Shown here piece by piece: positions 3,581 through 63,701 of a DNA stretch of 64,000 nt. Each line of letters opens with the position of its first letter. Position 1 is the stretch's first letter. Below the pieces are notes generated by a model, which worked only from the letters and a program-made list of their open reading frames with translations, did no database searches and had not been told where the DNA came from. Source of the stretch: a virus. Lineage: Duplodnaviria > Caudoviricetes. The position numbers and the translations under genes are program-made. The stretch is from the IMG/VR virus record IMGVR_UViG_3300028797_000108, positions 32,001 through 96,000 of that record. One strand, given 5' to 3'.

Positions 3581-3610
3581 AGGCGCGGAATTATTTCCGC
3601 GTCTTTTATT
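3581..3610 (+). terminator. intrinsic terminator
   Basis: AGGCGCGGAA-TTAT-TTCCGCGTCT stem-loop followed by TTTATT. Confidence 0.75.
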
Positions 3611-3651
3611 CTGCCTAAAGAAAATTTTTATATTTACTATTGAGGTGTCTT

Positions 3652-3963
3652 ATGGATGAAACCGAGATTACAAATTGCCTAGGTGAAATCGAGCTAGTCA
3701 TGAAAGACCCTTCTTTGATTGGGAAAAACGGTTTTTCATTTGAAGAGTTTTTGTCAGTCAATGAATTCAAGATAATGGTGCTGTGCTTTTATCACTTTCA
3801 TCTTTATCCAGTGAACAAGCGTCTACTTGAATTGTCGCTTGATGCTGAAGATTGTGATAATTATGACTTCATCTACAACCTAATTGCGGATAAGTGGTTA
3901 AAGCACGCAGAGACCGAAATAGAGAAATACATTAAGGAACTCGAATCCACACCGATAGAATAA
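3652..3963 (+). CDS. hypothetical protein
   Basis: GAGGT SD before ATG 3652. Confidence 0.65.
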   Translation: MDETEITNCLGEIELVMKDPSLIGKNGFSFEEFLSVNEFKIMVLCFYHFHLYPVNKRLLELSLDAEDCDNYDFIYNLIADKWLKHAETEIEKYIKELESTPIE

Positions 3964-3993: not shown

Positions 3994-5007
3994 ATGGATT
4001 ACATGCATTATCAACGTATGCCACATATTCACGGCGACCTTGAACCAGCATTCGTCGTTCCGCCGCACGAACCGTGCTGCCCTGACGAAAAAGAAGAATG
4101 CGTGTGCGTCACATCGGGTGATGTTGAAAAGTGGAATGAAACCGCTGATATGCTCAGCGCCCTATCAGGAATTACCCCGGAAGATCTTGACAATATCGGA
4201 AGCGCAGTTTCTGCGCTAACCAGTGCTGATTATTGGAACAGCACTTACAATACAGTATGCGCTAAATCTGCTAATTGGGACAGCGCTTATAACGCAGTCA
4301 CTGCAAGCGCTGATATTTGGAATAGCGCAAGTGACATTCCTGAACTGACATCAGCAATAAACGATTTGTCTAATCAGATATCTGCACTTGACAAGGCTAA
4401 GGCTAGTGCATTCTTCACTGACTCAGCATCTATCGTAGGCGACGGTACTTCAGGTTCGCCATATCGTGTTGCTGATTGGGCTCGCATATCTGCACTCAAT
4501 TTTAATTTTAACGAGCTGGAAAGACACTTATATCCAGCTGACTCAGCTGATGGTTTAACAGCTGATATGATTATCACTGATGGTGCTCGTGCTAAATTCT
4601 TGGCACTGCAACCTGAACATGAAAAACTCATGAGCTTCATGCAGACTATTGATACCCACATTTCCGGCATCAATAGCCGAATAAATGAAGCTGAACAGTT
4701 GTCATACCAAGCCATATCTGAAGCAAAGACTTATTATGGCGACGGTAGCACAACAGTGATTAATGAAAAGTTAGTCTCAGGCACCGACCCTAACCATCCA
4801 AAGACACGAGAATATGTCGTATCTGTTATAGGCTTGCCTAACGGTTATGATGATAGAATTTCATCAGGCGTTCGTGCTTGGGAATACATCTCGGCAAATC
4901 TTGTAAATAGACGCTTCCTTTCATGGGCAACAACTAACTACCCAACAAAAGCTAGCGATGTCACTGCTTGCCGTGATTATGACACCATTTATGTTGCTGT
5001 GGAGTAA
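3994..5007 (+). CDS. putative fibre/decoration virion protein
   Basis: W(N/D)S coiled-coil repeats (SADYWNSTYNTV, SANWDSAYNAV) and a DSASIVGDGTSGSPY fibre-type motif; late promoter upstream. Confidence 0.55.
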   Translation: MDYMHYQRMPHIHGDLEPAFVVPPHEPCCPDEKEECVCVTSGDVEKWNETADMLSALSGITPEDLDNIGSAVSALTSADYWNSTYNTVCAKSANWDSAYNAVTASADIWNSASDIPELTSAINDLSNQISALDKAKASAFFTDSASIVGDGTSGSPYRVADWARISALNFNFNELERHLYPADSADGLTADMIITDGARAKFLALQPEHEKLMSFMQTIDTHISGINSRINEAEQLSYQAISEAKTYYGDGSTTVINEKLVSGTDPNHPKTREYVVSVIGLPNGYDDRISSGVRAWEYISANLVNRRFLSWATTNYPTKASDVTACRDYDTIYVAVE

Positions 5008-5010
5008 AGA

Positions 5011-5412
5011 ATGGAAACGGCTCTTTCAATAGTTGCTACAAACAATCCTATAGCAATAGTTGCTCTTATTGCTGTATTGTTGTGCTATGCGATAATTGGC
5101 TATATCGCATGGCAGCGCTCCAATACTGCTAAGATTCGTAATGAGCAGAATGACACTCATACGAATGAAATTACGCAACTCCAGAAACAATATGACGAAC
5201 TCAAGGAAGAAGTCAAGGATATGAAGGAGCAGCAGAACAAGATGGAAACGGAAAAGCAGCTAATTCAAAAGGACGTAACCCACCTGATAGAAGAAACAAG
5301 TGGAATAAAGGAAGACATTCGAGAAATAAAGGTGACACTTGGCGGTATTCAATTATCGCTTGAAAAGATTGGCGCATACTATGATTTCTTGAAAGAAAAA
5401 AGGACTAGATAA
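5011..5412 (+). CDS. single-TM coiled-coil membrane protein (holin-like)
   Basis: N-terminal hydrophobic helix IAIVALIAVLLCYAIIGYIAW followed by a coiled coil. Confidence 0.5.
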   Translation: METALSIVATNNPIAIVALIAVLLCYAIIGYIAWQRSNTAKIRNEQNDTHTNEITQLQKQYDELKEEVKDMKEQQNKMETEKQLIQKDVTHLIEETSGIKEDIREIKVTLGGIQLSLEKIGAYYDFLKEKRTR

Positions 5413-5852: not shown

Positions 5853-6599
5853 ATGGCAAAAAAGATCAGCGATAAAAACCGTAAGAAGGCATCTCTGTCA
5901 GAAGGATTCTTGGACGGCGAAGAAGAAGTGACCGTTACTCCGGAAGACGCACAGCCTGAAGATACTACCGAAGACGATGTACCTCCAGAAGATGGCGGTG
6001 AAGAAGGCGACGGTGATATTTCTGATGAAGGCGACCCGGATGGCGATGGTGACGAAGGCGATGCAGAAGCAACCGACGACGAAGCCGGAGTTGAAAAGGA
6101 TCCCGAAGAACAACAGGAAGATCTGCAGGACACTATGCAGACCTTGATTACTGCTGTTCAGGCTCTAACCGACCAGATTGCTAAGCAGAACGGTGACGGT
6201 GAAGAAGGCGGTGAAGGCGAACCTGCTGAAGGTGGTGACGAAACTGCTGAAGGCGGCGATGATTTCACTGACGACGATTCAGAATTTGAAGGTGGGGACG
6301 AAGAAGGCGAAGGCGATGACGACGCTGAATTTGAAGGCGGCGACGAAGGCGGAGAAGAATCATCAGAAGAAGAAACAACTGATGAAACAAAATCAGAAGC
6401 CTGGAACCATTTCGCTAAGCAAGGCATGCCTCTCAACGAAAACAGCGGCTACATGATTGGTAAGATCTTGTCAGGTCGCTTTGACAAGTTGGAACCATTT
6501 GTCATGGCTATCGTTGAACAGAAGATTCACGACAGAGTTGAAGGCGCAAAGAAGGAGTTCCGCACCCAGGCCTACAATAAACAGTATGGCGAAGAATAA
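5853..6599 (+). CDS. highly acidic protein, possible prohead core protein
   Basis: D/E/G-rich; LSE and LNE motifs resemble prohead-protease sites; AGGAG SD. Confidence 0.6.
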   Translation: MAKKISDKNRKKASLSEGFLDGEEEVTVTPEDAQPEDTTEDDVPPEDGGEEGDGDISDEGDPDGDGDEGDAEATDDEAGVEKDPEEQQEDLQDTMQTLITAVQALTDQIAKQNGDGEEGGEGEPAEGGDETAEGGDDFTDDDSEFEGGDEEGEGDDDAEFEGGDEGGEESSEEETTDETKSEAWNHFAKQGMPLNENSGYMIGKILSGRFDKLEPFVMAIVEQKIHDRVEGAKKEFRTQAYNKQYGEE

Positions 6600-6626
6600 T
6601 CACATTTAACATTCTAAAACCCTTTC

Positions 6627-6660
6627 AAAACGGCAGTTATAAATAACTGCTGTTTTTCTT
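6627..6660 (+). terminator. intrinsic terminator with TATAAATA at its apex
   Basis: AAAACGGCAGTTAT-AA-ATAACTGCTGTTTT followed by T-rich tail. Confidence 0.7.
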
Positions 6661-6661
6661 G

Positions 6662-6669
6662 TATAAATA
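6662..6669 (+). promoter_or_regulatory. late promoter TATAAATA
   Basis: Exact consensus 4 nt before ATG 6674. Confidence 0.8.
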
Positions 6670-6673
6670 CTAT

Positions 6674-7261
6674 ATGAAACAGTTTGATAGTCTATGTGAT
6701 GCGTTCAACATTAACGGCGTTGATGACAACAAAGTTAAGGAAGAACTTTTGAATACTGAGCCCGTTGCTCCGGTAGTTCCTGAACCTGAAGAACCTCAGG
6801 AAGAAGAGGCTACTATTGAGTTCAAAGGCCAGAAGTATACATTAAAGAGCCTCGAGTATATGAGGGTAATGCTACAAGAGAAAATTTCTCAAGACACACA
6901 TGTTCTTGAAACTCTTGGGCAGATGTGCAAGTTAAATGCACAAGCTAGATATTTTGAAGTCTATGCCACGCTGTCTAACACTGTGGCCTCGCATTTGAAA
7001 CAGCTTCAAGATCTAGAGAAAACAATAACAGACTATCAAGTTATTCAGACGAAAGAAGAGATGCAAAAAGCGTCTATGGAACAAAAGGAACGCTTGGCAC
7101 TTTCTAAGGCATCTAACTCTCCTGCTGCTCAAACACTTATTCAAAACAACACAACAAACTTGTATTTGACATCCACAGAACTGGATGAAATGATTGACGA
7201 GGCAGAGCACGATACCCATATAAATACTGACGAAATATCCACTGATTTTGATTTAAGCTAG
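6674..7261 (+). CDS. gp16: terminase small subunit, gp16-like
   Basis: ARYFEVYATLSNTVASHLKQLQDLEK matches the gp16 PR.(Y/F)EV.A.L...L motif; C-terminal NNTTNLYLTSTELDEMI matches NN..F.GST.EL. Confidence 0.75.
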   Translation: MKQFDSLCDAFNINGVDDNKVKEELLNTEPVAPVVPEPEEPQEEEATIEFKGQKYTLKSLEYMRVMLQEKISQDTHVLETLGQMCKLNAQARYFEVYATLSNTVASHLKQLQDLEKTITDYQVIQTKEEMQKASMEQKERLALSKASNSPAAQTLIQNNTTNLYLTSTELDEMIDEAEHDTHINTDEISTDFDLS

Positions 7262-58545: not shown

Positions 58546-58677
58546 CGGGCGATAGTTCAAGCGGTCGGGAATACTTTCCGAGTAAAACAGAACGATCTCA
58601 GACCTTCGTGCTAGGTCGCGAGAAAACACGAAGTTAGGACGATAGACTTCCCTGGGTTCAAGTCCTGGGGCGCTCGC
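58546..58677 (+). ncRNA. tRNA-like RNA with expanded D-loop and anticodon arm
   Basis: Acceptor CGGGCG/CGCTCG, D-stem GTTC/GAAC, T-arm CTGGG-TTCAAGT-CCTGG; extra hairpins inserted in D and anticodon regions. Confidence 0.7.
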
Positions 58678-60153: not shown

Positions 60154-60182
60154 TTGACAGTTCAAAATTAAATTGTTATATT
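60154..60182 (+). promoter_or_regulatory. early promoter
   Basis: TTGACA-N17-TATATT. Confidence 0.85.
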
Positions 60183-60496: not shown

Positions 60497-60525
60497 TTGA
60501 CAGTTTCAGAAAACTATTTTATATT
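60497..60525 (+). promoter_or_regulatory. early promoter for the tRNA/ncRNA operon
   Basis: TTGACA-N17-TATATT, embedded in an inverted repeat (60497-60538). Confidence 0.75.
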
Positions 60526-60637: not shown

Positions 60638-60710
60638 GCCTCGGTGGCGCAATTGGTAGCGCAGCGGACTCTTAATCCGTGGGTTGAAGGTTCGAGTCCT
60701 TCCCGGGGCA
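60638..60710 (+). tRNA. tRNA-Lys(CTT)
   Basis: Loop CTCTTAA. Confidence 0.95.
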
Positions 60711-60909
60711 CTACTGGACAAGATCGCGTCAAACTGAAGAGGATTGTTAGTAGTAGCGAAGTACAAGCTATGAACAGGGTTGCTAGTAGGTTTGATGGCA
60801 ACGCGTGCAGACCCCACCGATGAGGAGGGGTGAACTGCAGAGGAACCCGACCTGGGGGCGCATCGGGGTGAGTCTTGACAATTTGATGAAAGCGAATCAT
60901 CGCAAGTCG

Positions 60910-60987
60910 TTGGATGTAGTTATAAATGGAAAAACAGGGTCCGCTTCGGCGAGCTCATAATTGTGGGTCCGACTCCCACCGTCCGTA
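60910..60987 (+). ncRNA. tRNA-like RNA with anticodon loop replaced by a cUUCGg tetraloop
   Basis: Acceptor TGGATG/CGTCCG; D GTT..AAC; arm GGGT-C-CGC-TTCG-GCG-A-GCTC; T-arm GTGGG-TCCGACT-CCCAC. Confidence 0.75.
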
Positions 60988-61117
60988 AAACGATTCTGTG
61001 AGTAGTCAAAGGGCTAATCTAAAGCTTGCCTCCAATGCGAAAAAAGCTGAGCGTGCCACCGGCGAGCGATGGTGGGGTTACAGCATAACCACAAAGCTGC
61101 ACAATGCAAGATCGCCT

Positions 61118-61199
61118 TCGGCAGATAGTTCAAGCGTAGAACATCGGGTTGTCCCCGAAGATTACTGGGTAAAAGCCAAGGCTACCAGAAGTCACCGAT
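61118..61199 (+). ncRNA. degenerate tRNA-like RNA (5-nt anticodon loop, remodelled T-loop)
   Basis: TCGGCAGA-TA-GTTC-AAGCGTA-GAAC-A-TCGGG-TTGTC-CCCGA ... CTGG..CCAG ... TCACCGA. Confidence 0.55.
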
Positions 61200-61326
61200 T
61201 GTTGCATATCCTGCTTGGGTCGCGGTTGGTCCCGTGAGACTCGCTCAGGCTTGGTTGAAGGTTCAACAAGTAAAAGAGGACTTAGGCTTGCTTGGCGCCT
61301 TAAGCCTAACCAGCACAAGCATTATT

Positions 61327-61400
61327 GGGGTCATAGCTCAATTTGGTAGAGCACTAGCTTTGCAAGCTAGGGGTTCCGGGTTCGAGTCCCGGTGGCTCCA
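61327..61400 (+). tRNA. tRNA-Ala(TGC)
   Basis: Loop TTTGCAA; G3-U70. Confidence 0.95.
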
Positions 61401-61411
61401 CGAAACATTTC

Positions 61412-61773
61412 GGGCTCCCTCCGCCATTTGCAAGTAAGACAAAGAAGGCACGACAAACCGAAAGTAGTTACATTGGTTGCTCTTTGTGGCTGCGATCTTG
61501 GTCCTTCCTAATGAAAGTACCATACAAAGGAGTAGGTAGATCCGTGAAGGAATCGCTCTAAGCTGGAGTAGATCGGATCGGGAATCGCTGAAACGACCGA
61601 AGATGCCTATAACAGAAAGGTTGATGGTGTGCAGCTAGCACTGTCGCTGAAGTAAATGTGCGGCATTGGAAGGATGGAAACGGTGAGGCGGTATACTGAT
61701 GGGACAGGGATAAGCTCCTGACTTTTAGGTATATGTGGTAGCCACTGTGGAGGTTCAAATCCTTCGGTGCCCA
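61412..61773 (+). ncRNA. ~360-nt RNA closed by a tRNA-like acceptor stem and T-arm
   Basis: 5' GGGCTCC pairs with 3' GGTGCCC-A (one mismatch); T-arm GGAGG-TTCAAAT-CCTTC; variable arm GTGG-TAG-CCAC; followed by CTA like the true tRNAs. Confidence 0.65.
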
Positions 61774-63494: not shown

Positions 63495-63701
63495 ATGACT
63501 GAACAAGAAGCAAAAAGAGCAAAAGAAATTGAAGCAATGCTGAATTGGAATTTGCAGCGATCCCAGGCCTTGGGTGAATTCCCTTTGCCCGTCACTTGTG
63601 GTATCACTCAGATCTTTAACTGCGTTCAGTCTGAAAGGGCGGCTGCTTGGAAGCGCAAGAATGATATTGCGAACGGGCGAGTCCCTGATTCGGTTCCGTA
63701 G
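63495..63701 (+). CDS. 68-aa hypothetical protein inside the tRNA operon
   Basis: AAGGAG SD; its stop codon lies inside the next tRNA. Confidence 0.6.
   Translation: MTEQEAKRAKEIEAMLNWNLQRSQALGEFPLPVTCGITQIFNCVQSERAAAWKRKNDIANGRVPDSVP

Follow-up and report, generated by a model that had tools for sequence, protein, structure and literature searches.

The tRNA island and its closed-arm element

The analyzed window is a stretch of 64,000 nucleotides, bases 32001-96000 of a 139-kb IMG/VR virus fragment with an estimated completeness of 37%. The record contained genes for a portal, a major head protein, and baseplate parts, and its relatives by head protein were cattle-rumen contigs of at most 185 kb. 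A tRNA island of 29 genes occupied 6.8 kb of the plus strand, with 19/29 of these genes inside the window. Within the island, a non-coding spacer between tRNA-Lys(CUU) and tRNA-Ala(UGC) held a tRNA-shaped element whose third arm was closed by a UUCG tetraloop (Table 1). Two strong sigma-70-like promoters lay upstream and a consensus scan found no terminator-like site between them and the element, so co-transcription of the element with the tRNAs is likely. We rejected a protein-coding reading of the spacer, since its GTG/TTG ORFs were all short and other assemblies of this phage had no gene called there, and we rejected the element as an intrinsic terminator given the absence of a T run. The 139-kb fragment, ~37% of the genome, contained no genes for RtcB, RNA ligase, CCA-adding enzyme, or Ro60.

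Two further observations concern the wider array. A 68-aa ORF inside it (window 63495-63701) was predicted as a gene in five separate assemblies that agreed in its sequence, and an ORF of 68 aa was likewise called at the equivalent position in a related lineage with 71% protein identity at a nearby ORF (see below). A tRNA 458 nt past the window end (G000:C1:96458-96533; ARAGORN score 105) had an 8-nt anticodon loop with the four-base 'anticodon' AUAA.

Table 1 Features of the locus and comparable features on other contigs. Positions are those of the window unless a contig is named.
Feature	Position	Strand	Basis or description
tRNA-shaped element, 78 nt, without 7-nt anticodon loop	60910..60987	+	sequence, MFE cloverleaf, relaxed ARAGORN, Rfam tRNA model
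Acceptor 5' strand UGGAUG, pairing with CGUCCG (60980-60985); U60910 opposite U60986	60911..60916	+	pair probabilities 0.95-0.99 (five pairs), 0.49 (U·G)
Weak D arm, GUU/AAC stem, GG in loop (60928-60929)	60919..60935	+	Rfam tRNA model alignment; pair probability ~0.1
Closed arm replacing anticodon arm: 4 bp, C·A mismatch, 3 G-C pairs, cUUCGg (UUCG 60945-60948)	60937..60956	+	pair probabilities 0.94-1.0
T arm GUGGG-UCCGACU-CCCAC	60963..60979	+	exact 17-mer known from ordinary tRNAs
Possible 5' strand of a 7+5-bp acceptor-stem extension, pairing with 60989-61001	60900..60911	+	MFE, single sequence
Possible 3' strand of the extension	60989..61001	+	MFE, single sequence
Non-coding spacer holding the element, 615 nt	60712..61326	+	between tRNA-Lys(CUU) and tRNA-Ala(UGC); no gene called in other assemblies of the same phage
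tRNA-Lys(CUU), upstream neighbor	60638..60711	+	ARAGORN, Rfam 70.9 bits
tRNA-Ala(UGC), downstream neighbor	61327..61401	+	ARAGORN, Rfam 70.2 bits
Sigma-70-like promoter TTGACA-17-TATATT, upstream of the Lys...Ala unit	60497..60525	+	consensus scan, 11/12 consensus matches
Second sigma-70-like promoter, upstream of tRNA-Lys(CUU)	60154-60182		consensus scan
GATAACACAAGTGAGATGGATTGAAA/AAATAGGGTAAGGTTTA module	L145:5033-5438, L166:~3640-3866, L167:2115-2515, L139:9940-10248		
Closed-arm cloverleaf, 314-kb phage	L067 7408-7488		7+4+11+5 perfect pairs (27), 11-bp third arm, loop GUAG; 14 nt upstream of tRNA-Ser
Closed-arm cloverleaf	L047 11838-11905 and L137 4814-4881		arm CGGG-AUUU-CCCG
Closed-arm cloverleaf	L120 6044-6110		loop AGGU
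Closed-arm cloverleaf	L054 ~4545-4618		loop GAAA

The letters of the third arm (GGGU-C-CGC-UUCG-GCG-A-GCUC, plus strand) were as the sequence-only reading had given them, and the RNAfold minimum-energy structure of the element was a cloverleaf at -20.6 kcal/mol. The acceptor (5-6 bp), third-arm, and T helices had pair probabilities of 0.93-1.0, which remained at 0.83-0.96 when 80 nt of flanking sequence was added at either end, and the closed-arm hairpin folded alone at -7.0 kcal/mol. The folding energy was unremarkable for the composition when compared with shuffles (z = -0.58). The same reading had called the cloverleaf otherwise normal, which was contradicted by the terminal U1·U77, a 3-bp D stem with A·A, U14, and C55, as well as by a 6-nt variable region, two acceptor G·U pairs, and the C·A mismatch plus two G·U pairs in the arm.

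In place of a 7-nt anticodon loop on a 5-bp stem, the arm comprised 4 bp, a mismatch, 3 bp, and a 4-nt loop; ARAGORN alternatively read it as 5 bp with a 6-nt loop. Since three G-C pairs and the UUCG loop close this arm, there is no anticodon and no decoding. The characterization as a non-decoding tRNA shape was borne out by the position of the element inside the tRNA operon, on the tRNA strand, and by a T arm letter-identical to those of genuine phage tRNAs.

Like tRNAs (RF00005) and their pseudogenes, the element had an acceptor stem, here of six pairs with a U·U end, stacked without a gap on a canonical T arm (5-bp stem, 7-nt loop), together with GG in the D loop, and it lay on the same strand within a tRNA array. 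Unlike them, it had a tetraloop-closed third arm of 20 nt vs 17, a score of 21.7 bits, under the 29-bit cutoff, the terminal U·U, U14, and C55 already noted, and no parent that can be named. In the predicted fold, a 12-layer acceptor/T stack and elbow would supply the prerequisites of an RNase P and RNase Z substrate.

Detection, chance, and ancestry

Default ARAGORN and Rfam, at the gathering threshold or window-wide at E<=10, left the element unreported. Relaxed ARAGORN returned exactly 60910-60987 with a score of 85.6, compared with 100-123.5 for the true tRNAs of the island. Run on a 141-nt stretch, the Rfam tRNA model aligned to the same coordinates at 21.7 bits, under the 29-bit cutoff, with 17 anticodon-arm positions swapped for 21 unaligned nt. 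An end-to-end alignment that skips the anticodon arm indicates that the element is tRNA-like everywhere but there. ARAGORN found no tmRNA and Rfam had no tmRNA match at the locus; other Rfam families, with no match at the locus either, were rejected.

A chance origin, with the cloverleaf arising in non-coding DNA of higher G+C content, is very improbable and was already disfavored. The folding energy of the element fits such an origin, as does an ARAGORN score within the background of the rest of the genome, where 10/71 relaxed matches scored at least 85.6. The island spacers (4.4 kb) nonetheless gave nine relaxed matches on the plus strand, five of them scoring at least 85.6, and none on the minus strand, whereas 300 dinucleotide-preserving shuffles of the spacers yielded 0.57 matches per set and 0.087 per set at this score. 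Weak cloverleaves on the tRNA strand of the spacers were thereby enriched 16- to 58-fold over shuffles, and the strand specificity of this enrichment makes chance unlikely, as does the end-to-end alignment of the Rfam model at the same coordinates. Given the enrichment by spacer and strand and the occurrence of the T-arm 17-mer in real tRNAs, we take the element as tRNA-derived and not as a chance fold. The hexamer CTTCGG occurred three times in the island against ~0.9 expected (~3-fold).

The T-arm 17-mer, GTGGGTCCGACTCCCAC, has C for U at position 55 and was found in 69 viral contigs (L055-L123), nearly all within ordinary tRNAs; letter for letter, it was common to many tRNA isotypes in many unrelated phage contigs. 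The best non-self matches of a covariance model of the element were ordinary tRNA-Gln(UUG) genes of relatives, at 39.5 and 34.7 bits vs 112 for self. Pairwise comparison also placed tRNA-Gln(UUG) first, with nearly equal top scores spread over Gln, Gly, Leu, Asn, and Arg, and by these sequence comparisons the parent tRNA cannot be named. No tRNA with the 3' end of the element was found in the bacterial genomes of a 185,579-species set. An attP or copied host tRNA 3' end was rejected, the sole genome matches being to Micromonospora coding sequence, and so was a class II variable-arm remnant, as such arms lie 0-2 nt from the T stem and here the gap was 6 nt with no other arm.

We also considered whether 60910-60987 is the head of a ~100-nt RNA mounted on a stem, in an orientation like that of Yrn1, which would stay uncut by RNase P and be bound via its stem. 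A predicted extension of the acceptor stem appeared in the MFE of both 141- and 241-nt contexts (pair probabilities 0.43-0.99), only 2% of shuffles matched its flank duplex of -11.4 kcal/mol, and other RNAs of the island carry tRNA parts on a terminal stem. The architecture has a precedent in Yrn1 of Deinococcus radiodurans, which has a long stem at the acceptor position, a 5-bp 'anticodon' stem, and a 6-nt loop (PMC4201824). Yrn1 and YrlA (RF02553) are, like the element, non-decoding RNAs with a tRNA-like domain, and phages encode Y RNAs. We regard the stem-mounted form as improbable all the same. The flanks of 1/29 true tRNAs paired equally well, and the probability of the helix, a single-sequence prediction, dropped to 0.4 in the whole spacer and ~0.02 with the neighboring tRNAs included. 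Unlike Y RNAs, the element had no YrlA match at the locus and no Ro60-binding helix of the pattern GNCGAAN0-1G (PMC4201824), the nearest flank motif, AAGCGAA, being off-pattern. The Ro60 gene is usually adjacent to its Y RNA, and TROVE (PF05731) had no match in the 139-kb record (~37% of the genome). A family of 'handle' RNAs in the same island (window 63164-65143) has the terminal stem AAGAUAC..ACAGCAAA....GUAUCUUG, and neither part of its signature, the ACAGCAAA box or the UAUCUUG end, occurred in 60895-61005.

Distribution among relatives and turnover of spacer modules

No homolog of the element was recovered. The exact 20-mer of the closed arm had no second copy in viral contigs, a pattern leaving the arm length free matched nothing in metagenome contigs, and a degenerate T-arm plus 3'-acceptor pattern returned at least 120 ordinary tRNAs. 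BLAST of the 615-nt spacer found none among 44 related viral records or GenBank phages, nor did the single-sequence covariance model (R1) among 30 related records and all syntenic loci.

Syntenic relatives were reached by two routes. A 30-nt anchor in the neighboring 362-nt RNA, common to a 185-kb relative (G001), led to six metagenome contigs of the G001 lineage, and a 190-aa ORF (ORF190) 0.8 kb upstream of the element led, via protein clusters, to contigs with 100%, 91%, 71%, 61%, and 56% protein identity. The independently assembled 100% contig was identical at 6779/6779 nt and two further ENA assemblies had the same ORF spacing, so the sequence is not an assembly artifact. All copies of the element found were identical, without variation. 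The element was absent at the syntenic site in five related lineages (L145/L146, L148-L152, L166, L167, G001). The Lys-Ala spacer of the 91% lineage, with flanks 90.5% identical, was a different 406-nt module, and this alternative recurred in the 61% and 56% lineages; the spacer of the 71% lineage measured only 62 nt, and in the G001 lineage a further, distinct module came after tRNA-Lys(CUU). The 615-nt spacer and the element in it are thus confined to one phage lineage, and absence from five related lineages implies that the element is dispensable. The tetraloop had been said to look selected, giving a body that anticodon nucleases cannot cut. This found no support, as relatives with flanks 83-90% identical lacked the element and the data searched contained no homolog; with no relative carrying it, selection as a nuclease decoy cannot be shown.

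The island was rich in other non-tRNA RNAs, one family of which was mounted on a covarying terminal stem. A tRNA-like module with extra hairpins at window 58546-58677 was ~95% conserved in L148 (~4900-5040; the 71% lineage), with flanks at ~87%, and the two copies differed by a compensatory C-G to U-A change in the T stem. Just upstream of the element, the module at window 60719-60878 had ends (CAAGAU…GUCUUG) resembling the AAGAUAC…GUAUCUUG terminal stem and may be a divergent member of the 'handle' family.

Other modules differed in their distribution among lineages. The 362-nt tRNA-shaped RNA (window 61412-61773) was missing in the closest syntenic lineages, L145 and L148, and the G001 lineage had an 83%-identical copy in a different place, a distribution that implies that lineages exchange RNA modules. 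Four lineages had, 3' of tRNA-Lys(CUU), a non-coding module of ~300-400 nt that is conserved among them (…GATAACACAAGTGAGATGGATTGAAA…AAATAGGGTAAGGTTTA…); the next gene was tRNA-Ala in three of the four and tRNA-Pro in L139 (Table 1). Spacer RNA modules are reshuffled between these phages.

Two relatives had altered tRNA-Lys(CUU) genes. At L044:5904-6717 (G001, IMGVR_UViG_3300028805_000046) the gene was split inside the anticodon, after nt 33, by a ~741-nt insert containing an endonuclease-like ORF (5952-6596) and a second, intact tRNA-Lys(CUU) (6594-6668); this insert looks like a mobile cassette carrying its own replacement tRNA. At L166:~3590-3640 a ~30-nt internal deletion fused the 5' 30 nt of tRNA-Lys(CUU) to the 3' acceptor end, a clear tRNA remnant, with the gene intact at the same position in relatives.

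Absence or variability in relatives is what one looks for in a pseudogene, and absence at syntenic sites, with identical copies only, is what we found. The main rival of a functional tRNA-body RNA is a decaying tRNA or recombination remnant, nearest to the tRNA-Gln(UUG) type, that drifts in a fast-turnover spacer and has no function of its own. It would have lost its anticodon loop via small indels and substitutions, with the cUUCGg cap incidental. Such decay would be consistent with the imperfect stems, the sub-threshold scores, the absence in all related lineages where spacer modules are swapped or lost, and the 39.5-bit match to ordinary tRNA-Gln(UUG). The split and internally deleted tRNA-Lys genes show that tRNA remnants exist in such islands, and CUUCG is the natural start of the tRNA-Arg(UCG) anticodon loop. 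In our judgment decay is possible but less likely than a functional tRNA-body RNA. It has no stand-out parent among the five isotypes with top pairwise scores, and it would have had to leave the T arm perfect while the remainder diverged past recognition. A loop region 3 nt over the normal length that forms three G-C pairs is unexpected from simple decay, and loops that are shortened or closed, on stems that remain intact, also occur in several further elements, both here and in other phages.

A candidate tRNA-body RNA and its analogs

A scan of 1.25 Mb from phages for acceptor/T-arm combinations that belong to no called tRNA revealed closed-arm cloverleaves in other phage tRNA arrays (Table 1). 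These analogs were cleaner cloverleaves than 60910-60987. Their loops (GUAG, AUUU, AGGU, GAAA) were inconsistent in extra stability, so that cUUCGg is not a hallmark of the group and lends no support to selection of the tetraloop; the trait that recurs in unrelated phages is the missing anticodon loop and not the UUCG cap. An exact-pattern search with the L067 element recovered only itself.

In the best explanation, which we hold with slightly less than even confidence, the element is a non-decoding tRNA-body RNA, accessory and specific to this lineage, that shares a transcript with the tRNAs and undergoes tRNA-like processing. We infer the transcription, the processing, and any binding or decoy function. 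Transcription would start at the promoters at 60154 and 60497 and would run jointly through tRNA-Lys(CUU) and tRNA-Ala(UGC). The element retains the acceptor/T-arm stack and the elbow formed by the D-loop GG and the canonical T arm, the parts read by RNase P, 3'-end trimming enzymes, and the CCA-adding enzyme, and because these are retained it would be excised as a tRNA is, giving an RNA of ~78 nt. The most likely role of this RNA would be that of an accessory mimic of the tRNA body, one of several in the island, that offers an anticodon-less body to some tRNA-binding factor.

Several findings favor a tRNA-body RNA. The element resembles a tRNA outside the anticodon arm, its arm and acceptor helices hold up when more flanking sequence is folded with them, its T arm is identical to that of real phage tRNAs, and the 16- to 58-fold enrichment in the spacers is confined to the tRNA strand. 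The upstream promoters without a terminator, the identical independent contig, and a spacer free of genes agree with it, as do the cleaner analogs in other arrays and the conserved module at 58546-58677. Genuine tRNA decay in these islands took the form of a large internal deletion (the relative L166) or of a gene split by an endonuclease cassette (G001), and not of a neatly closed loop. Against this explanation, an element without a homolog offers neither covariation nor conservation, and it is absent in five lineages. Its stems, with three mismatches and four G·U pairs, are poorer than those of true tRNAs, its score lies within the background (10/71), its energy is no better than that of shuffles, and the fragment contains no gene for a partner protein.

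Known RNAs offer partial parallels. The mascRNA and MEN-beta tRNA-like RNAs (RF01684) are eukaryotic and nuclear, and RNase P and RNase Z cut them out of a longer transcript. Like them, the element would be a small RNA of tRNA-like form whose anticodon arm is shortened and does not decode; it differs in having no Rfam match at the locus and in that its processing is proposed by us. Phage T4 encodes the stable RNA species 1 and 2 (rnaC, rnaD), small non-tRNA RNAs that are co-transcribed and co-processed within the T4 tRNA cluster. The element would likewise be a non-tRNA small RNA among phage tRNA genes; the T4 RNAs are longer and unrelated in sequence. Phage T5 tRNAs evade or neutralize tRNA-cleaving defenses such as PARIS or PtuAB-type nucleases while remaining decoding tRNAs with altered anticodon loops. 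The element resembles these counter-defense tRNAs in being encoded in a phage tRNA array and in its proposed value in a conflict over host tRNA cleavage. Unlike them, it lacks an anticodon, and in the fragment (~37% of the genome) nothing was found that connects it to anticodon nucleases or to any other nuclease.

More speculatively, and with low confidence, the large-phage tRNA arrays may contain an undescribed class of anticodon-less tRNA-body RNAs, gained and lost fast in the manner of counter-defense genes, and acting as putative uncleavable competitors for host factors that read the tRNA body, e.g. anticodon nucleases. Its members would be 60910-60987, which is lineage-specific, and the L067, L047, L120, and L054 elements. 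A literature search found no account of phage tRNA arrays that carry decoys without an anticodon. Taken alone, 60910-60987 is a weak example of such a class, unconserved, with imperfect stems and without a known partner.

For annotation, the spacers of phage tRNA islands are not empty, and standard finders overlook a set of tRNA-derived elements in them. If this shape is under selection, the tRNA arrays of phages would combine spare decoding capacity with fast-changing tRNA-body mimics, which would add an RNA-based layer to the conflict between phage and host over tRNA cleavage and sensing.
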